Origin: Paraspadella gotoi | Lineage: Eukaryota > Animalia > Chaetognatha | Reading direction: 5' to 3' | NCBI GenBank assembly: GCA_051294375.1 | Contig: CM119270.1 | Coordinates: forward strand, 7,389,143-7,453,142 | Length of the DNA: 64,000 nucleotides | In this document: positions 4,752-64,000 of the stretch, piece after piece | How positions within the stretch are numbered: the first letter of the stretch is position 1 | Layout of the letters: every line of letters begins with the position of its first letter | Notes under the pieces: generated by a model | Database searches by the model: none | What the model was told of the DNA's origin: nothing | Seen by the model: the letters and a program-made list of their open reading frames with translations, nothing else | Made by a program: the position numbers and the translations under genes

Positions 4752-7700
4752 AATAAAATAATAAATAAATAAATAAATCCATTAATCAATCAATCAGATC
4801 AATCAATACCTCTTCCTCCTTCGAAAAAAGCCGAACTTCACCTGGAACTCTTGGCTGAAATCCCCCGGAGGGATGATGATGATCATCGGCTTCTTCCCTC
4901 GGTCTTCGCTTTGCTCCTTTTGCTTTTTGTTCTCGTCAAACACGTTCGTCGTCGAGGAAGTCGTCGTCGACGACGCCGACGCGCGGTTCCGCCTCTTCCT
5001 CCTCCTTCCTCCTCCTCGCCGGGTTGCCGACCCCCGGGCGCCCGGAGCGGCGTCGACTCGACTCCTCCGCCTCCGCCTCCTCGTCGCGGCGCCCTTCATT
5101 CCTTGCCGGTGCAGCCGCACTCCTTGCCGTGCAGGCTCTCGGGCCGCCGTGCCGCCCAGGGGGAGGCTCGGAGTCTGTGAGCGTGAAAGGAAGGGGGCAG
5201 TGGGAGAGTGCGGTTTTTGTTATGCTTATATAATTGTATATATATAATATATAATTATAGTTATGAAAAATGGAAAGATGACTTGTTTACTATATATAAA
5301 CTTTTAAAAATTTTATATTCAATTTAAAAAATAAATGTAAAAATTTAATAAATTTCACTATATATAGATTTATTTGGTTTGGAATTCATAGTAAAATTCT
5401 TTATCGTTTAATGTCATTTTTTTACAAACTCCCCCGTCACACAGAGCCTCCACCCCCACCACCCCCACTTGGAACCCTTCCCTACCCTCCCCCACCCCTG
5501 CACGACCGCCCCACTGCGCCTCTCACTTCCTTCAGATCCTACTCGACGCAGCCTCCTCTCCTCAGAATCGGGTAAGTTCGGTTTTACAATGTTCTCTGGT
5601 GAACTGGGAAAATTATTCAATTTAACATTTTATCAACAACAATTTTTTCAAGAAAAAAAGGGGAAAAATACATGAATTATGAATTAAAGTAATAGGAATA
5701 TATCTAATTGAATTATATGATGACTATTGACTATCCTTCTCCAGGAATCGCCTCCTCCCGATCCGCCTCCCGCTCCGCCTCCCGCATAGACTCGGCTCAT
5801 CCCGCGACTCAATCACATCCGGGTCGCGACCTCGCTCTACCGGTTTCACTTCCGGGTTCGCCGACTCCGACGGACGAAACTCCAATGATATGTCCGAGAA
5901 ATTGCGATGGAAAGGCGCACGGATACAGGTCCTAGTTGTAAAGTTGTAAACAATAGTTACTAATTATTGCTAATAATTTTTTATTCGCTTATTAAACTTA
6001 TTCTTAATTTTATCAAACTTTGATGATTAGCTTTGTTTATTTGCCTCACGTTTTTTTTTCTTTCTTTTTAGATGTCGATCGAATTCTACTGTTTCGGGAA
6101 ACCGAACACATTATTACTTCAACGGAGACGTGAGAAACTTTAAAGGAATTGAATTTCCGCGGAAAAATCTCATCACCAAAGAAACGATTGGTGAGTGAAA
6201 CTGAAAGGATTTGTTCACGGGGGAATTGAGAAAAAAAAGAGCATAGCCGAGCTCCTACTTATCATTAGAGGTCGCTATGTATCAAAGTTTAGTGAAAATG
6301 AAACAAAAAACCTCTTTAACTCGAAATGAAAGTAAGTAATGAACGCGAGTAGGCGAACTGTATTTTTAAAAAAAAATAAGAAAAAAAAAAGATTATTTTT
6401 CAAGAAATTTTCATCGCTTACCTTACTCTATCAATCTCTCTTCACGATTCCCCCCTCGTTTTTTTCCAACCAATCAGGGCTCGGAGAATACGGCAAAGTC
6501 GTCAAGGGTCTGGCCTTTAATCTTGACGGTTCGGAGGAATGGCGACAAGTCGCCGTCAAGATGCTGAAGGAAGACGCGGACAAGAAAAACAAGGAAGCGC
6601 TGATGGTGGAGATGTCCATCATGCGCCTAGTCGATCCGCACAAGAACATCGTCAAGCTGCTGGGGTGCTGCATCGACCAGGTGATTGGGAAGAAGGTTGT
6701 TGGGAAATTCGTCTTGCGTCTGAGTAAAACAACAGCATACGGTTTAAGCATTCTGTTCTATAATATTTAATAGTTATAATTTAAGAATTGCGTCGATACT
6801 CTGACCGAGGTCATGACCACCAAAAAAATAAGGACTTCTGACCTGCAACCCCAGACCCATTTAATAAAAAAACAAACTGACCGTCCCCATAACAGGATCC
6901 TTATATGATGATTCTCGAATTCATGACGCAAGGAAATCTCCAGGATCATCTCCGGAAAGCCTCCGCCTCCACGCCCATTCCGGTCACCGCCAACGACTTG
7001 GTCAACTATGGATACCAAGGTGAGGGAACGGATCATTTCTTTTATAGAGAATGAGCTTATTTTCAGTTTAGACTAGAAAATACAAGCGAGAAGAGAACTT
7101 AGTAAAAACCTTTCTTTCTATTCAAACTCTCGCTCTATTGCTCTCTTCAATGAACTTCGGTGTCTATTTATTTCATTTTCCAATTTCATTTAGTCTTTGA
7201 TTAACTTTCCTTGAAGAGACAGTAATTTATTTTTATGTGATAAGTAGACAGAACCGTTTCAATATTAAGCAAGTCCACTGAGCTTCGGCATCAGGCTGTC
7301 AACACCATGTTGGACAGGCGGGTTAAGCGCCCCGTCGCGCTCTTAACTGCGCAGAACGACCACCGGGCCTTAGAGACCCCGGAGCCTTTTGGTGTTGGGT
7401 AGGGCGAATGACATTGCCTCCGTGCACCAATGGCCGCTGGATGAACGGTTGGTGGATTTTAGTCCACCATACCTTATACGATTAGGCCTTGCAGCAACTT
7501 AACTATCTCGTCCCCTTCTCGCCTTCCCTTCCCAGTGGCCTGCGGCATGCAGCACCTCTCCCTCGCCCACGTGATCCACCGTGACCTCGCGGCGCGCAAC
7601 ATCCTCCTCGGCGCGGACGGCGTCGTCCGCGTCGCCGACTTCGGCCTCGCGCGCGACGTCTTCGGATTTGGCTCCTACGAACAAAAGTCCGAAGTTCGGC

Positions 7701-7799
7701 TGCCGATCCGATGGATGGCGCCAGAGTTTCTGTTCAAGGTGAGCGGATGATCTTCTGTTTCTTTTGGGTATATTATTATTATTATTGTTTTATTAATTA

Positions 7800-26362: not shown

Positions 26363-32061
<5,699 letters not shown>

Positions 32062-35487: not shown

Positions 35488-36100
35488 GGACGTCGACGAA
35501 AAGTTGAAACAAAGACGAAGAAGATTTTTTTGACAACCGCGATGATGAAGAAGAATAATAAAAAAAGACGACGACGAGTAGACAGCGACGACAATGACGA
35601 CATCGCAACAAGTTTGTCTCTCATCGAACTCAATGACTCTTATTATTTTCTCGAAAACTCTTTTTCAATTATACCTGGTTTTTTTGTAGTTTTAAATAAA
35701 TTCTATTTTCTGTATACAATTTTATTAAATTCAATTTGATCGTTTTCGATGTTGAGATTAATTTAGTTTTATACTTTACATTACTTTATCATTTAAATTT
35801 TTGACTTGATTCTTATTTTCCGTGGCTACTGGATGTTTTATTGATAAAAACTGGAAAATACTTCTTTGACTTAATTTTTTTTAAATTTATTTTTTAGCTT
35901 TATGTTTACCAATAAACGTGCAAAAAACGGAAATCTCGGTATTTAAGAAGTCCTTACAAATATTTAAATAAACTACATCAGTGGGTGTCTTCTCACGAGG
36001 TGATTTTTTTTTACCAAAAATAAATTTTCAATAAGTAATGTTACATGAATTAACGTTAAATAGTGTTGTATTTAGTCTTAAATTTACGTAAAAGAAATAA

Positions 36101-36379
36101 CATTCATCCCTCCATCCATCCACCCGTCCATCCATCCATCGATCCATCCGTCCATCATCATCCATCATCCATCCGTACACAGATCCATCCATCAATCAAT
36201 CCATCAATCATCGATTCATCCGTCCATCCATCCATCCATCCATCCATCCATCCATCCATCCATTCAGCCATCCATCCATCAATCATCCATCAAATCAATC
36301 AATCATTTCTTCATTACACGTATCCAATAGTATCCATTCATTCTTGCCTCCATCCATTCCTCCATCCATTCATCCATCC

Positions 36380-36453
<74 letters not shown>

Positions 36454-36510
36454 TCTTCATTACACGTATCCAATAGCATCCATTCATTCTTGCCTCCATC
36501 CATTCCTCCC
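36101..36510. repeat. (CCAT)n/(TCAA)n compound microsatellite with an internal ~70 bp duplication, directly upstream of TRP gene 1
   Basis: 'atttcttcattacacgtatccaatag..tccattcattcttgcctccatccattcctcc' occurs at ~36305 and ~36451. Confidence 0.85.
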
Positions 36511-36524
36511 GGTTTCAGATCAAG

Positions 36525-39500
36525 ATGCCCAAATTGAGGAAGAGGAAAACCCGGGAACGCCTCCGCGATCACGCGGACCTCAACATCTGCGGGAAGTTGA
36601 CGCCGAACGAGAAGATGCTTTTCGTGGAAGTCAGAGAGGGAGACACTGATCGGGCGATCGCGCTTTTGAAGAATCTCCAGGTCAGTTGGTTGGTGAAAGT
36701 AACAAGGTTAATAAAATGAACGAGAATTTACTTGAAAATATTCTTTTAAAAAAGTTATCTTGAGTTGCAGTGTGACCGCCTGTAACAGCCTATTTTTAAA
36801 TAGCAAACGGCCACATTATTAAGCTTAATCCGTTCGAACACTGCAGGAATAAAACTAATTGTACGTAAATCGGAGTACATCGCTCGTTTTATGTATGTCG
36901 GTAGTTTAACAATTAAAATGAAGCACACTTGTCTTTTTTACACAAGTCTCCGATAGATTTATTGTCTTTTTCCTTTTATTATTTTGTTAAATATGTTTAT
37001 TTATTTTATCTTTAACATTTTCTTGTTACTTACAGGAGAATTTAGACCTAGAAAAACGCGACTTCTACGGCCGAACGGTCCTCTCCTACGCAGTCATTCG
37101 CCAAAACGAAGAACTAGTGGATTTCATGACCGGAAGTCAATTTCCCGAAGAGCGCAAGCCCGTGTTTCTGGGCGATAGCCTCGCCTACGCCATCGAGGGG
37201 CGAAACTACAGCATCGCGGAAAAGCTGCTCACTTACGCCGAGGCCATGGACTGGCTGGAGCGTGACTACCAAGAGGCCGCCTTCAACAGCCACGTCTCGA
37301 CCAAAAAGTCCAAACAGAACTTCGAAAAGCGAGAGGCGACGTCCTGCTTCATCAGCACCGAATCCTTTGGCTTGGTTCAGCAAAATGTCAGCGTCAAGTT
37401 TACCGACGACGTTCTGCGGAATCCCATCATCAAGGCGAGCATCATTGATGATTATCCCATCATTCAGATGCTTTATGAAAAAGGGTTCCGGTACGTTGAA
37501 AGTTTAAAGTAACTAAAGAAATAAATGTAACCAAAAAATGGTGACAATTTTACCTAATTACTGTTTACTTTTTTTTTTTTTTGTTCAGAGTTGTCGTTGA
37601 TGGTCGCCCTGAAGACGAAAAGGCCATTGCCCGCTTAAATCGTTTCAAAGCCTATTGCAGCCCAGGTTATCTCAGTGTAAACGAATTGGACGCCATTGAG
37701 GTCTGTTTCAAGAAATCGGGCACCCTGGAATCTCTGGCTGAAAAAGATCCCGTTTACACTGTCGAATATGAGCAGTTGGCGGCACAGCTGCGCCACTATG
37801 CGGTCAACTTGTTAAACCAGTGTAGAGGGGACAAAGAAATCAAGCTGATTATGTCGAAATTTAATGAGAAATATGACGAAGAAAAAAAGACTGCCGATCC
37901 TGGGGTCTTCAGATTCCCCCGACTTGAAGAGGCTATCAAGTATGAGCAAAAAGAGTTCATAGCTCATCCTCACAGTCAAAAAGTCATCACAGAGATGTGG
38001 AGGACTCACGGCGGCACAGAAATGAGCTACATGAGACTTTTTCTAAATTTTATGCTGCAGATTCTTTTTGTTCCTTTGTCATCCATTTATCTCTTGTGCG
38101 TTGTTACTGATGATTGGTCTATCAGAAAAGTATATCCAAAAGAGAAACGAAAAGAGAATCTAAATGAAGTTGAGTCAAATACAACTGACAGTTCGCCTCC
38201 CAAAACAAGCCGTTGGGAGAAGTTTGAAAATATTTATCTGAAGAGTCCAATCTCCAGCTTTCTCCGATACTACGGAACGTATCTCATCTTTGTCATTCTG
38301 CTTGCTGTAGAGGTGCTTGAGCCAAATTTGACAAACGAGACAAGAAATTCATTGACTTATGGATGTAGCCTTGATGCTTTAGAGTACCTAATTATCATAT
38401 TTGTTGCAGGATACACGAAGCATATAATCACACTCATTTATCTTACCGGAGCTTCTTTTTTTACCAAATTTCAAAACATAACTTACCTTTTTTCGGTAGT
38501 TTTCTTTTTTCTCGCATATATTATTTGGGTTGTCGGATTTCTCATAACTTCAGCAACGTTTGCCTCTGACGGAGTTGATGTAAACTTGTGTCAGAAAAAT
38601 ACTATTCCTCGCTATCTTTACACCTCAAAACATACTTATGTTTTGGCCTCAGAAATCTGCTTCATGATTGCCGTTATTGGGTCATACCTGAAGGTTCTTG
38701 AAGTTTGTCACATTAATCGATATCTTGGTATTATGCAATACATTCTTTTCCAAACTTTTAAGGATGCAACATATATTTTATTCATGTTCCTACTTTTTAT
38801 CATTTGCTTCACTCTTGGACTTCAAATGATCTACTTCAATTACCAGAAAGATAACTGGAGAATAAAAATAAATGACCTGACCGGCCTCCCAGAATGTAAT
38901 AACATGCACGAAGAGTTCACTGATTTTCAAAAGACTCTAAAAACTCTATCTTGGGATCTTTTTGGTTATGGTCAAGCTTCATATGCAAACATTATGCAAC
39001 CCAACATTCGGGATACAAGTGGAAAACTTCTAGAGCCACAAAAGATGGACGAGATGCGATTGTTGTTATGCAATCCACAGTTAACTAAGATCGAGTGGCA
39101 TAAAATCTCAAAAGAAAATAACATAAGCATGACGTTCGAAAGTAATTTCGAATTGGCAACAGAGTTTTTTGGCTACCTCGTTGACTTTTTATATCACGGT
39201 ATTGTCATTATTCTCTTGCTAAATTTGCTCGTTGCCAAAATGAGTCAGACCTACGTAAACATTTTTAAAAATGCCGACAAAGAGTGGAAATTTCAGCGCA
39301 CGATTTACTTAGCCAGATTTATGGATTACTCTGAGTACGTGCCTCCACCATTCAACCTCCTTCCTCGTCTCCATTTACTACTCGAACTGGCGGGAAAATT
39401 TAAACATGTATTTAAGCATTTGACAAAGCGTCACTTAAAAACAGAAAAAAAGACGCCTATAAACCACGAATATCACGAATTTGAAGACATACTCCATCAC

Positions 39501-39653
39501 CGACTTATTCACAAACAGTTGGAAGAAAGGTCGGCAAATGCTGAAGTTCTCGAGCTTTCCAAGGAATTAGTGCAGGACACTAACGCTATGCTGTGCAAGA
39601 TCAAAGAGTTGAAGGATTTGACTTTATATTCCTCGCTGGATCTCGTTGATTAA
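36525..39653 (+). CDS. TRPC-like cation channel paralog 1 (~891 aa); exons 36525-36680, 37036-37490, 37589-39653
   Basis: Ankyrin-like repeats (DFYGRTVLSYAV; GDSLAYAIEGRN), TRPC linker (RLNRFKAYCSPGYLS; RLEEAIKYEQKEFIAHPHSQ), six hydrophobic segments, pore LSWDLFG, S6 LLNLLVAKMS, TRP box EWKFQR and PPPFNLLP. Confidence 0.93.
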
Positions 39654-40072
39654 AAAAAAAGAAAAACTTAAACTTTTGGTGGTTAAACATCAAAATATTC
39701 ATCAAGATGCTTTTTTCCCTAAATATTTCATTTAAATTATGTTTTTAGTATAATTTTTAATAATATGTCAAAAAGTAAACAATAAAATAAAATATATGTC
39801 ATACTATTTTGAAGCTATAACATGAATTAATATTGTCAAATTTCCCTGTTTTCAATTGATCCTTTGAACAAATACATAAACAGCTTGAACAGCTTAAACG
39901 TGCAACAAAGCAAAACACAAAGTTTTATTCGCTTCGGTCAATGTGTGCCAAATTTTTCAATTTTTTAAAACCTTTTGTCCCGGCTGGTGCTATTTGTGCG
40001 ATTTACAATATTTTTTTCTGCCATGTAAATTATTTGTCTACTTTTTTTTGCCCAAGTTTCTCATACATAAAG

Positions 40073-43000
40073 ATGACAAAACTGAAAAAAAGAAAAACGC
40101 GGGATAAAACCCGAGACCATGCTGACCTCAATCTCAGCGAAAAGTTGAGCTCAGCGGAGAAGATGTTGTTCGTGGAAGTGAGAGAAGGAGACACCGACAG
40201 GGCAATCGCACTTTTAAAGGATCTCAAGGTTAGTAAAAATTACTGAAAAAAAAAATGTACGTGTATGCAAAAAATAAACTAAATTTAAACCAAGTAATAT
40301 TACGTTTTTACTTTAGGAAAACTATGACCTGGAAAAGCGAGACTTCTACGGTCGGACGATCCTCTCCTACGCAGTCCTCCGCCAAAACGAGGAACTCATC
40401 GACTTTATGACCGGAAAAGAATTTCCCGAAGAACGGAAACCAGTCTACATCGGTGACAGCCTCGCCTACGCGATCGAGGGACGGAACTACAGCATTGCCG
40501 AGAAACTCGTTAAATATGCGGAGTCTATGGATTGGCTCGAGCATTCCGACAAGGAGACGGCTTTCAACAATAACGCCTCCTCCAAGTCCGTTAGCAAATC
40601 CAAGAAAAACCTTGAGAGAGTGGAGACAACGTATTGCTTCATGCGTCCGCAGTCGTTTGGGCTGATTCAGCATAACGTCAGCGTCAAGTTTACCGATGAT
40701 GTTCTGAGGAATCCTATTATTAAAGCCAGCATTATCGATGATTATCCTATCATTCAAATGCTGTATGAGAAGGATTTCAGGTAAATGTTGAGCCATTCGG
40801 TATTAGTTAATTGAATTAAAAAGTATATTATTTCATAGCGGTTTAGTCCATATTATTATTTTTTTTTTTTTTTTAAGAAATTGTTATGAAATTGGTACAA
40901 CCAATATAAAAATTATCTATTCATTTAATAAATAAGCTATCTTGCCCATGACATTGGACAGGCTTTGGTGGTTTAAGGCCTCCATCACTCTTACAAGATA
41001 ATTGCATAGCAGGTCCCTGCAAGCTTTCAATCAAGACTCTCTCACAGTCTCGTTTATTCACTCCCAGAGTTATTTTACCTTATAAAATTTCTTTTATTTT
41101 TATTTTTTGACAAGGGCATCGAGAACACTATTAAGATTAAGTAAAAATATTATTAAAATTGTTAAAATATAACTAAAATAAAAAAATGATTTTTGGCTTT
41201 AAGACCATAGTGTTTTATTTTAAATAATTCAGGGTAATTGTGGATGGTCAACCTCAAGATGAAAAGCCAATAGCTCGCCTCAACCGTTTTAAAGCATACT
41301 GCAGCCCTGGATACCTCAGCCTCAACGAATTGGACGCCATCGAAGTTTGCTTCAAAAACTCAGGTGTGTTAGAATCACTGGCAGAAAAGGATTCCGTCTA
41401 CACTGCCGACTATCAACAGTTAGCGAGCAAACTTCGAAACTACGCGGTGAACTTGCTCAATCAGTGCCGGGATGACAGGGAGATCAAAATGATCATGAGT
41501 AAGTTTAATGAAAAACAAGATGAAGAAAAAACAGCGGATCTCGGAGTTTATAAGTATCCCAGACTCGAGCAGGCCATCAAGTATGAGCAAAAAGAATTCA
41601 TCGCGCACCCGCATTGCCAAAAGGTGATAAATGAGATGTGGAGCAGCCTGGGTGACATCGGATACGGCTACAAGAGTCTCTTTTTCACTTTCGCGCTGCA
41701 AACGTTACTTGTTCCTTTTACCTCTATCTACCTGCTGTGCGTAGTCACCAAGCAATGGTCAATTAGAAAGGTGTATCCACAGGATGAACTCCGGAAATCC
41801 AAGAGTAACGGCACAGTCAACGAGATTGAATCCATGACCGAAGTCAGCGTTTCAATCAAAAAAAGTAAATGGGAAAAGTTTAAGGATCTTTATTTGAAAA
41901 GCCCGCTTTCCTGTTCTCTCAGATACTACGGAACGTACCTCATATACGTCTGTCTCTTAGCCGCCGAGGTCCTCAAACCAAACGTGACAAAAGTGAGAAG
42001 AAACATGTTGACTTATGGTTGCAGCTTGGATAAGCTGGAAGTCGTAATTTTGATATTCGTGATAGGGTACATGGAGCATGTGGCGTCGAGCATTTACGTC
42101 ACGGGAAAGAGGTTTTTCACCAAATTTCAAAACATCACCTACATGGTTTCCGTTTTTTGCGCTTTTCTTGCGTATGTGATCTGGGGAATCGGTTTCCTTC
42201 TCACCCGAAAATCTTTCGGCGAAGAAGACGTGGATGAAAATCTCTGCCAACAAAAGACCATTCCTCGCTATCGCTGGACCGCCAAACAGGATTACATTTT
42301 AGCATCGGAGATATGCTTCATGTTGGCTGTAATCGGTGCCTATCTCAAAGTACTGGAAGTATTCCAGATAAATCGTTACTTGGGCATCATGCAGTACATT
42401 CTGTTTCAAACATTCAGAGATGCCTTGTACATCTTGTTCATGTTCTTCCTGTTCATCATCTGCTTCACCCTGGGTCTCCAGATGATTTACTTCAACTACC
42501 AGAAGGACAACTGGCAAATCAAAATCGGTGACGTCTCTGGTCTTCCCGAATGTCAGAACATGCAAGAAGAGTTTTTCAGTTTCAAGAAGACAATCAAGAC
42601 TTTATCATGGGATCTTTTCGGCTACGGCGACACCTCCTATGCCCGAATCATGCAGCCAAACATAAGAGATATCAACAAGAAACTTCTTCCACCGGGCAAG
42701 ATGAACGAGGTGCGCCCGCTGCTCTGTAATCCTCAGTTGACCAGAAAAGATTGGGAAAACATTACGGCGACTTACAACCTGAGCACGGAATTCGAACCCA
42801 ACCTGGCCGACGCGACGGAGTTCTTTGGCTACACTGTAGACTTTGTCTACCACTGCATCGCCATCATCCTTCTCCTCAACCTACTCGTCGCGAAAATGAG
42901 TCAGACTTATTCGGAGATCTTCGACAACGCGGACAAAGAGTGGAAGTTTCAGCGGACCATCTACTTGACCAGATTCATGGACTATTCCGAATACATTCCG

Positions 43001-43321
43001 CCGCCTTTCAACATCATCCCACGACTTCATTTTTTCGTGGAATTCGTCGAGAGCATCATTTTCAAGTGCTCCGAATTGACCAACCGCAGCGGAGGCTCTG
43101 ACCTAGACAATGGGCCCACTGCTCCCGTCAACCAAGAGTATTACGACTTTGAGGACATGCTGCATCACCGCCTGCTGCACAAGCAACTGGAGGAGAGATC
43201 AGAGAGCGCGGAGGTGCTTGACCTCTCCAAGGAGTTGGTACAAGATACAAACTCGATGCTGACGAAGATTAAGGAGTTGAAAGATGTGACGGATGGATGC
43301 TCCGAAGATCTGGTCGACTGA
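40073..43321 (+). CDS. TRPC-like cation channel paralog 2 (~902 aa); exons 40073-40228, 40317-40780, 41233-43321
   Basis: Same motifs and intron positions as paralog 1. Many synonymous and amino-acid differences with intact frames indicate a real paralog. Confidence 0.93.
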
Positions 43322-46923: not shown

Positions 46924-52307
<5,384 letters not shown>

Positions 52308-53327
52308 GGAATTAAATGTTGTTCATGCGATTGTTTTATATTCATTAAAATTTTGTGCTGATTAGTTTTTTAACTTTATTTTCTTGCGAGAATGGAGAGA
52401 AAAAAAAATGATGATGACCATATCAAGTCTTATTTTAAACGTTTTTGCAGTCAAGTTTTTCTTTAGTACAATTACTTGCTTAATTAAGATAATCTTTAAA
52501 CATTTGAAAGATGACTATGAACGTAAAAGAGGAAAATTCACAGCATAATTCTATATTACTATATGCTATGTTTAATGAGCAATATTCTAAATACAACTCA
52601 CTGAAGTAGGTACAACGAATATGAAAATTATTCGTTCATTTTTTGCAAGCTATTTTAGGTTTACGTCTTTTGTTATTTTCTTCAGTTTACTTCGCATTCA
52701 TATCGAGAGAAGGCGCTTAAACCGCGAGAGTGAGAAAACAAAAGATATTTTTACCTAAATTTTACCTTTCTACTTCTATAATATCGTCACAATCCCTCAC
52801 CTTTTTTCCTACCTTTATTTTCGTCTTCTACACGGTTAAAATAAATGAAAATATTTTGTAAGCATGTACAAGGGAACTACATTATTTACAAGTATGAACA
52901 TAATCTTCATTTACTAAACTCTTTCTCTTGAGAGCTGTTAGAAAAAAAGAAGAAAATAAAAACCATTCGGTTGATTTACTTTCGACTAAATATTTTATTT
53001 TATACTGTAACATTTTATATTTTATATAATATATTTACATTCAATTTAAGTAACAATTTTACGTATTTTAAATGTAAATCCTCACGCACGACAATTTGAA
53101 ATTTGTAGGCACGCACGCCACTTTTTAGCTGTATTTTATATTTCTTTCTCCTTCTCTTTTTTAAACAGGTTTGTCTGGTTTAGACGGTTTTAAATTTTAA
53201 ATAATCCCCCCCAGAAAAACCCCGAATTCCCAAACCGATCGATCTAACCTTTATTTATTTTCAAAGCTGTTACTCAACATTAATGCACGTCCTTCTTCTA
53301 TCACCTTCTCTCGAAGCCACGCCCACA

Positions 53328-56643
<3,316 letters not shown>

Positions 56644-63257: not shown

Positions 63258-63502
63258 GTAAATTTCTCTTTGAATTCAAAAAACTCTTTAAAATTTATAA
63301 AAATCAACATGATCTTAAATCTTAATATTCGCTCTAAAATTTAACGTTTTTATCAATAAGAGTAAGCTTTTGTTCTGAATATACTAAATTCATTTGTGCT
63401 AAAACATATTAAAATTAAAATAATTAAATATTTATTAATGCGTATATTCGTACGTAACTTTCACTAAGCTCTAATGTATATATATATATATTTTTTTTTT
63501 AG

Positions 63503-64000
63503 CATGTGATGACCAAACTGGAACAAAGAAAATTACAACAAAAAGTTTCTGGACCTGCAGATCTTGTTTTAAGTGAAAACTTAACAGCGCCGGAAAAGAT
63601 GGTTTTTGCAGAAATTAGAAAGGGTGATAATGACGCAACAATTTCACTCTTAAAAAATCCAAATGTAAGTATAAATTTAATATTTTTAAATGTCTTGTTT
63701 TAATTAATTGTCACTTTTAAAAGCGACTAAATTTTTTTTCACATTCATGGATAAATATTATCACATTAAAACAATTTAAGGTCGAGGTTGACCTGAATAA
63801 ACGCGACTTTTACGGACGAACCATCCTTTCTTACGCCGTTCTTCGCAATAATGAGGAACTCATTGATTTTATGACGGGAAATGAATTTCCTGCACATAGA
63901 AAACCAGTTTATATCGGAGACTGTCTCGCCTACGCAATTGAAGACCGAAATTACAGCATTGCCGAAAAAATCCTTAACTACGCCGAGTACATGGGATGGT
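63503..64000 (+). CDS. TRPC-like channel paralog 3, N-terminal part (exons 63503-63664, 63781->64000); truncated by the window end and probably continuous with the MS4A-like module
   Basis: ADLVLSENLTAPEKMVFAEIRKGD and DLNKRDFYGRTILSYAVLRNNEELIDFMTG...GDCLAYAIEDRNYSIAEK align with paralogs 1 and 2 and share the same intron position. Confidence 0.88.

Follow-up and report, generated by a model that had tools for sequence, protein, structure and literature searches.

A tandem pair of genes encoding divergent TRPC-type ion channel proteins lies on the plus strand of a contig from the chaetognath Paraspadella gotoi (CM119270.1, assembly GCA_051294375.1), at positions 36525 to 43321 of the 64,000-nucleotide stretch analyzed here (positions 7,389,143 to 7,453,142 of the contig; hereafter the window, to which all coordinates refer). 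The two products, A (891 amino acids) and B (902 amino acids), represent a real, divergent, and apparently undescribed TRPC lineage. An initial annotation, made from the sequence alone, had proposed a divergent TRPC-like clade lacking the family zinc-binding motif; the lineage is supported by both sequence and predicted fold, and its notable part is not the zinc loss but the joint loss of residues mapped to Ca2+, phosphatidylinositol 4,5-bisphosphate (PIP2), and diacylglycerol (DAG) sites, together with the gain of an extracellular turret.

Both genes comprise three exons. In A these lie at 36525..36680 (start codon and ankyrin repeat 1), 37036..37490 (remaining ankyrin repeats), and 37589..39653 (linker helices, S1–S6, TRP helix, C-terminal helices, and stop), and in B at 40073..40228, 40317..40780, and 41233..43321. 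All four introns (355 and 98 nt in A, 88 and 452 nt in B) are GT-AG and fall in the same places in the two genes, and the frames contain no internal stops. A spliced contig of 3039 nt from run X1 (a run whose type is guessed as RNA, from one study and possibly the same organism) covers the entire A frame, including the joint to exon 1, with the 355- and 98-nt introns precisely removed; the X1 contigs differ from gene A by 3 letters over ~3 kb. A second X1 contig (2785 nt) precisely lacks B's 88-nt intron and joins the end of B exon 2 directly to exon 3 bases 41234-41242, so that transcript support for B exon 3 consists of these junction bases and cross-matches to A, beside its open frame, Pfam and structure matches, and predicted model. 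Runs X2 and X3 yielded no contigs placed on A or B. The paralogs are 72% identical over 890 aligned residues, rising to 84% across S6 and the TRP helix and 93% across the S4–S5 linker and S5. Saturated synonymous sites (proportion of differences, pS, 0.80) alongside few nonsynonymous differences (pN 0.17) indicate an old duplication, with both copies under constraint.

Assignment to the TRPC family rests on sequence and fold alike. Among sequences of solved structures, TRPC4/5 gave the best matches (E 1.4e-43), with TRPC3/6/7 at 8e-36 at best and TRPM far behind (best 3e-11). Pfam Ank_2 (E 0.002, located in exon 2) and TRP_2 (E 2e-4) were recovered in A and B below the Pfam cut-offs. An AlphaFold2 model of B exon 3 (mean predicted local distance difference test, pLDDT, 84.4) displays a six-transmembrane TRP fold with pore helix, TRP helix, and C-terminal helices. 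All Foldseek matches listed for this model are TRPCs (best TRPC5, E 9e-21), and VIA-align placed TRPC chains first, led by a chain of a TRPC1/C4 heteromer (Z 29.0, root-mean-square deviation (rmsd) 4.4, 510 aligned residues), with algal TRP1 and TRPM8 next at Z 20-22. A model of the relative P0002 aligned with TRPC5 from the ankyrins to S3/S4 (Z 19.6, rmsd 4.3, 366 aligned), and all 50 of its listed matches were TRPCs. The structural modeling that the initial annotation had suggested as a check thus predicts a TRPC fold with TRPCs nearest. The N-terminal ankyrin domain is short and leads into TRP_2/linker helices, as in TRPCs, an arrangement that excludes two other families. TRPN channels possess 28-29 ankyrin repeats (PMC12980990), whereas only ~200 residues precede the TRP_2 region here, in a frame that for A is fully covered by the spliced contig. 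TRPM/TRPS proteins carry an N-terminal SLOG domain and no ankyrin repeats (PMC7306681), and the A/B N-terminus is short and ankyrin-like. Of the 12-residue group I TRP fingerprint, scored in our own alignment, A keeps 10 (F572 is Ser, I617 is Val) and B keeps 9 (F366 is also Ser); the usual score is 7-11 (PMC9242649).

A word-based search for relatives found two proteins among 4738 candidates, and a full protein scan gave 1246 matches, of which the best 150 were used, with four fragments added by further searches. Residue counts below are relative to 147 other representatives, each denominator being the rows with a letter in that column. Trees were quick, unrooted LG+G4 reconstructions of chosen subsets with long branches. 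In a 56-row tree, A and B formed an inner clade with P0001, P0002, and P0013 (SH-aLRT, a Shimodaira–Hasegawa-like branch test, 100) and a wider clade that also included P0106, P0069, and P0083 (SH-aLRT 99); none of the six database members is named. Published invertebrate surveys split TRPC into alpha and beta groups (PMC13402157, PMC12980990). The clade and its protostome neighbors were split from the alpha rows and from the remaining groups with SH-aLRT 95 in that tree and 100 in a 34-row tree, both unrooted, with long branches and no vertebrate TRPC3/6/7 identified among their rows. Its neighbor in the 34-row tree was Owenia fusiformis CAH1777258.1 (P0003), which has an intact zinc motif. 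This protein belongs to an unnamed protostome group (also Lamellibrachia, Limulus, and Lingula) that is the nearest named relative among the best 150 of 1246 matches (E 1.3e-50). P0003 resembles A/B in its GYG filter and in how the post-filter loop begins, but it retains the zinc motif, F572, K365, R511, D438, and M619, reads EWKFAR in the TRP box, and is without a Cys-bearing turret. The alignment and phylogeny thus place A and B in a distinct clade with unnamed relatives.

No description of this clade, or of zinc-less invertebrate TRPCs, was found in the literature searched (mostly open-access main texts), nor was a described subfamily already having these residues, a finding that the initial annotation had named as refuting. 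Passages of 10.64898/2026.06.15.732245, PMC7017149, PMC12104807, and PMC11260127 hold nothing on it. Among metagenome contigs, 299 pattern matches yielded 0 confirmed relatives, and the ESM Atlas returned generic TRP/Ion_trans clusters (best 0.95), with no cluster or model of A/B's own.

The first group of replaced residues concerns Ca2+ and PIP2. At the S2–S3 cation site (A 38424..38486; B 42080-42142), A has Ile483, Leu486, Asn500, and Tyr503 at TRPC4 E417, Q420, N435, and D438. Only N435 is kept, E being replaced by I/V, Q by L/S, and D by Y in A/B; at the D438 position, 123/138 others have D/E and 0/138 have Tyr. Loss of this site is common to P0001, P0002, P0106, and P0180. The PIP2-coupling lysine (TRPC4 K365, TRPC3 K385) is Ser427 in A (38256..38258) and Cys434 in B (41912), at a position that is K/R in 128/135 others. 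A rewritten S4–S5 linker (A 38727..38765, Gly584 to Asp596; B 42383-42421) displays Ile, Tyr, Ile, and Phe at TRPC4 504, 507, 508, and 510, each found in 0/145 others and common to P0001. It also carries Gln (Gln592 in A) at TRPC4 R511 (TRPC3 R572), where 104/145 others are K/R and 41/145 non-basic. In TRPC3, R572Q and K385A each abolish PIP2 sensitivity (PMC11189476), the two residues being mapped here by alignment offsets. K518 and K641 of TRPC4 are also replaced. Scored over seven sites of this kind, which include the pore-helix, S6 Gly, and S6 Lys positions described below, A and B depart at all seven, against a maximum of four among 114 other scorable proteins.

The second group surrounds the DAG pocket. 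LSWDLFG, LLNLLVAKMSQTY, and EWKFQR, quoted for the pore helix, S6, and TRP box by the initial annotation, are all present and identical in A and B. Within the pore helix and filter, LSWDLFGYG (A 38946..38972; B 42602-42628), Ser658, Asp660, and Gly663 of A correspond to TRPC4 F572, S574, and G577. LSW replaces the LFW motif, whose Phe position holds an aromatic residue in 96.8% of group I TRPs (PMC9242649) and, in our set, in 127/144 others, with Ser in A/B and Leu in P0001, and the asserted loss of this Phe is thereby upheld. On S6, Phe737 of A (39186..39188) and Phe744 of B (42842) occupy TRPC4 G602, equivalent to the DAG-pocket glycine of TRPC5 (G606) and TRPC3 (G652) (PMC9253791, PMC7683545). 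This position is G/A/S in 119/144 others, and Phe in only two, both clade members. TRPC3 G652A suppresses activation by endogenous DAG (PMC9253791), and TRPC5 F576A conducts with an englerin potency at least 245-fold lower (PMC7683545). Since TRPC4 F572 and W573 pack against the S6 of the neighboring subunit, the replacement of Phe by Ser on one wall and of Gly by Phe on the opposite one looks like a swap. Of the suggestion that LFW loss affects the DAG site, the loss itself stands; the pocket appears remodeled rather than simply lost, with the Trp and the TRPC3-type Lys and Tyr kept and a new S6 Phe opposite the lost Phe.

The pore-helix Asp directly after Trp occurs in 1/144 others; as it is Gly in P0001, the closest full relative, and His in P0069/P0083, it was rejected as a mark of the clade. 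The GYG filter is found in A, B, and P0001 and in 5/147 others, including Owenia P0003, and no Thr precedes the A/B filter. In B the filter reads GYGD (42620-42631), which resembles the K+-channel signature. The residue at TRPC4 N580 is ambiguous, being Q/D by position after the filter Gly and shifted in another alignment.

In lower S6 (A 39216..39254; B 42872-42910), A has Val752 at I617, Lys754 at M619, and Ser756 at N621 of TRPC4 (mammalian TRPC4 P0015 serving as ruler). The Lys occurs in 4/4 inner-clade rows and K/R in 0/143 others, a true clade mark, unlike N621S, which was rejected because 88/144 others have Ser. The gate residues of TRPC4 are I617, N621, and Q625 (PMC5951680, PMC6079076), and if S6 is treated as an ideal 100-degree helix, M619 is turned ~160 degrees away from that pore-lining face. 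A selectivity effect of the Lys is therefore unlikely, and an effect at the gating interface is plausible, so that only the gating half of the original proposal for this residue survives. The TRP box (A 39282..39299; B 42938-42955) reads EWKFQR instead of EWKFAR; its Glu and Trp are kept, and its Gln, present in 1/143 others, resembles TRPM/TRPV boxes.

The third feature is an addition. Between filter and S6, A carries an extracellular turret (38979..39161) with Cys698 and an N-glycosylation sequon, Cys640 (38895) being the predicted disulfide partner; the B turret (42635-42817) has Cys705 and Cys647. The turret is ~48 residues longer than the median: the distance from filter Gly to S6 Gly is 69-84 residues in the wider clade, against a median of 22 over 146 rows, and only three unrelated rows reach at least 55. 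The Cys pair is present in 8/8 wider-clade members covering the region. Another extracellular Cys pair lies in the S1–S2 and S3–S4 loops (A 38364-38366 and 38589-38591; B 42020 and 42245); apparently matched in P0001/P0002, it is possibly a second disulfide.

The post-ankyrin linker in A (37480..37646) spans intron 2 (37491-37588), as its counterpart in B spans the equivalent junction (40770-40780 plus 41233-41290), and a missed exon was therefore the principal risk to be excluded. The canonical zinc site HxxxCxCxxC (H172, C176, C178, C181) is absent from both, as claimed, and H-x(2-4)-C-x-C-x-x-C has no match in a six-frame scan of the window, intron 2 included; together with the spliced contigs, this excludes an overlooked exon restoring the motif. 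The post-ankyrin string attributed to both paralogs is exact for A, and B differs at 5 of 23 residues, likewise without His/Cys. The segment separating the final ankyrin from the conserved helix that follows is 33 residues long in A and B, versus a typical 47 in motif-bearing TRPCs, and of the 63 positions in the TRP_2 profile A matches only 20-60 and B only 20-59. P0002 has an equally short linker, modeled confidently (residues 141-160, 10-residue blocks at pLDDT 86 and 81), and the fold is thus predicted not to need the zinc knuckle. The site is termed conserved in all TRPCs by PMC7683545, which describes it and found a subtle role at most. Of 124 other representatives covering the region (23 of 147 do not), 75 have the motif, 44 lack it (one being clade member P0106), and 5 have it in part, so its loss was rejected as a clade mark; the absence is genuine yet commonplace in marine invertebrates, and the motif is not definitive of the TRPC family as a whole.

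Named zinc-less proteins come from the hemichordates Ptychodera, Glandiceps, and Saccoglossus, the sea star Patiria, and the amphioxus Branchiostoma. They include a large TRPC-like expansion (P0012, P0018, P0020, P0024, P0045, P0048, P0149, and kin) annotated TRPC4/5/7-like, on which no paper was found in the literature searched. Like A/B these proteins lack His/Cys3, but they mostly keep LFW, E417, and K365. A tree joining the turret clade to seven zinc-less ambulacrarian rows was rejected by the approximately unbiased test (p 0.0003, for a group named after earlier trees), and the zinc losses thus look independent.

We tentatively favor the reading that A and B are non-selective cation channel subunits whose opening is uncoupled or rewired from phospholipase C (PLC), PIP2, and Ca2+ inputs. 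Cation conduction would be preserved, given that the Trp of the pore helix, the Gly of the filter, and the Tyr and Asn of S6 are all retained and that the gate residue, though Val instead of Ile, is still hydrophobic. Direct Ca2+ binding at S2–S3 would be lost, and direct Ca2+ potentiation with it, and PIP2 coupling would be weak or gone through the changes at TRPC3 K385 (Ser/Cys) and R572 (Gln). The DAG pocket would be filled from its opposite wall, the pore-helix Phe becoming Ser and the neighboring subunit's S6 Gly becoming Phe, which may keep the pore packing and narrow the lipid site. The S6 Lys would face the rewritten S4–S5 linker and S5, possibly pairing with a conserved linker Asp, and would shift the open–closed balance rather than selectivity. 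The zinc knuckle may be a dispensable loop, and the added Cys-bearing turret would be the best candidate input for opening.

Several observations weigh against this reading. The gating steps are read from alignments to mammalian channels at ~20-25% identity, the Lys orientation from an ideal helix, and the Lys–Asp pair and disulfide are predictions. In the large alignment the S2 register is broken by small gaps, although it proved stable in two slower ones. Three residues beyond the lost K365 the clade conserves an Arg (0/136 others) that could stand in for it, and P0001 has Lys at R511, so loss of this basic residue is not clade-wide. DAG binding might be retained through the kept Trp, TRPC3-type Lys (K619), and Tyr (Y648), and P0069 and P0083 carry pore-helix Phe and S6 Phe together, so Phe on one wall does not strictly preclude Phe on the other. 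The seven sites were picked after A and B had been seen, and long branches drift, which makes that contrast partly circular.

A conventional receptor-operated TRPC in a rapidly evolving animal, with compensated drift and PLC/DAG opening kept, is an unlikely but serious competitor. It is consistent with the long branches (path length 2.4-2.7 from the clade to the nearest non-inner rows), with the kept DAG-site Trp, Lys, and Tyr and TRP-box Glu/Trp, and with the widespread zinc loss and frequently non-basic R511 position (41/145 others) in TRPC-like proteins. Drift does not readily account for losses clustering on three separately mapped regulatory sites, nor for a rewritten linker that is 93% identical between synonymous-saturated paralogs and common to P0001 at 42-46% identity; the conserved linker and clustered losses argue for a new constrained state rather than decay.

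We consider it improbable that A and B are TRPC1-like modulatory subunits, conducting little alone and tuning heteromers with other TRPCs or with one another. TRPC1 is the vertebrate TRPC without E417 and D438 (PMC6079076), a divergent protein that, like A/B, lacks the S2–S3 acidic pair and has Val at the gate; PMC9242649 lists mTRPC5 F576A as dominant negative and non-functional, and the top VIA-align row is a TRPC1/C4 heteromer chain. Hagfish TRPC1 (P0077) also combines Val at I617 with an S6 Lys, but at N614, which is intact in A/B, rather than M619. TRPC1 further keeps the zinc motif and LFW and sits on a separate branch of the quick, unrooted tree, which places A/B with neither TRPC1 nor the alpha group, and retention of at least three paralogs is less well explained by a single accessory role. 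Comparably doubtful is a bolder reading, separate from the TRPC1-like one, in which the lineage abandoned second-messenger gating altogether (zinc, Ca2+, PIP2, and DAG sites) and took on the role of primary sensor, a chemical or a mechanical tether opening the channel from outside through a new disulfide-stapled, glycosylated turret and re-engineered S4–S5/S6 coupling, and then expanded by duplication.

A change of selectivity through the Asp, Lys, and GYG filter (e.g., K+-preferring or Ca2+-poor) is very unlikely. The GYG of A, B, and P0001, the GYGD of B, and an Asp after Trp that is nearly unique point toward it, but that Asp is Gly in P0001, the Lys lies off the pore face, GYG recurs in 5/147 others with no Thr before the A/B filter, and filter residues do not predict selectivity in TRPs (PMC5951680). 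Finally, an artefact (missed exon, mis-assembly, or pseudogenes), to which the imperfect frameshifted repeats and N runs in the first 21 kb of the window lend some color because the assembly is not clean throughout, deserves virtually no credence given spliced contigs joining exon 2 to exon 3 in both genes, open frames, purifying selection, and the equal deletion in P0002.

Vertebrate TRPC4 and TRPC5 are the best solved-structure matches in sequence and fold, with the same order of ankyrins, linker, S1–S6, TRP helix, and coiled coil. A and B keep G503, D515, W573, G577, Y604, N614, and W635, and one turret Cys aligns with C554. They differ in lacking the zinc motif, in replacing E417/Q420/D438, K365, R511, K518, K641, F572, and G602, and in I617V, M619K, N621S, the rewritten S4–S5 linker, and 48 extra post-filter residues. 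With TRPC3/6/7 they share two DAG-site residues, a Lys (K619) that precedes the LFW Phe by three positions and the Tyr at Y648 (PMC9253791, PMC7683545), but F622 is Ser, G652 Phe, K385 Ser/Cys, and R572 Gln, and the quick, unrooted tree does not join them to beta-like rows.

Gating models have been built on few mammalian and fly TRPCs, with the zinc site, LFW, DAG-pocket glycine, PIP2 lysine, and S2–S3 acidic pair treated as universal. A and B constitute a natural, selected multi-site variant, including the R572Q change that removes PIP2 sensitivity from TRPC3, and are useful for asking which inputs a TRPC needs and whether the zinc knuckle, missing from about a third of invertebrate TRPC-like representatives, matters. 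Divergent TRP paralogs as such are common in invertebrates.

A third paralog of the same clade, C, begins ~20 kb downstream on the plus strand. Its exon 1 (63509-63664) is 156 nt, the length found in A and B, and is followed by a GT-AG intron (63665-63780) and an exon 2 interrupted by the window end at 64000; over 125 amino acids, C is 62% identical to A and 68% to B. In all three paralogs a pyrimidine tract and an AG lie no more than ~8 nt from the ATG (36510-36527, 40040-40075, 63490-63511), and the spliced contig of A carries 25 extra 5′ letters without placement on 36000-41000, which suggests an intron in the 5′ untranslated region or a trans-spliced leader. The contig of A stops at 39982, 91 nt upstream of B's ATG.

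Elsewhere in the window, ~300-21000 holds imperfect tandem copies of 3.5-5 kb units with exons of a receptor tyrosine kinase type (Pfam PK_Tyr_Ser-Thr at 7463-7747, E 2e-24), the later copies being frameshifted, and also contains N runs, as in an uncollapsed assembly or a decayed duplication. An acidic low-complexity open frame of 618 codons (27501-29354) had no Pfam match at E 0.01. A multi-exon C2H2 zinc-finger gene occupies ~49550-52300, and the minus strand carries a multi-exon amidase gene at ~53300-56480 (Pfam Amidase, E 5e-19 in one exon), which we take to be FAAH-like.

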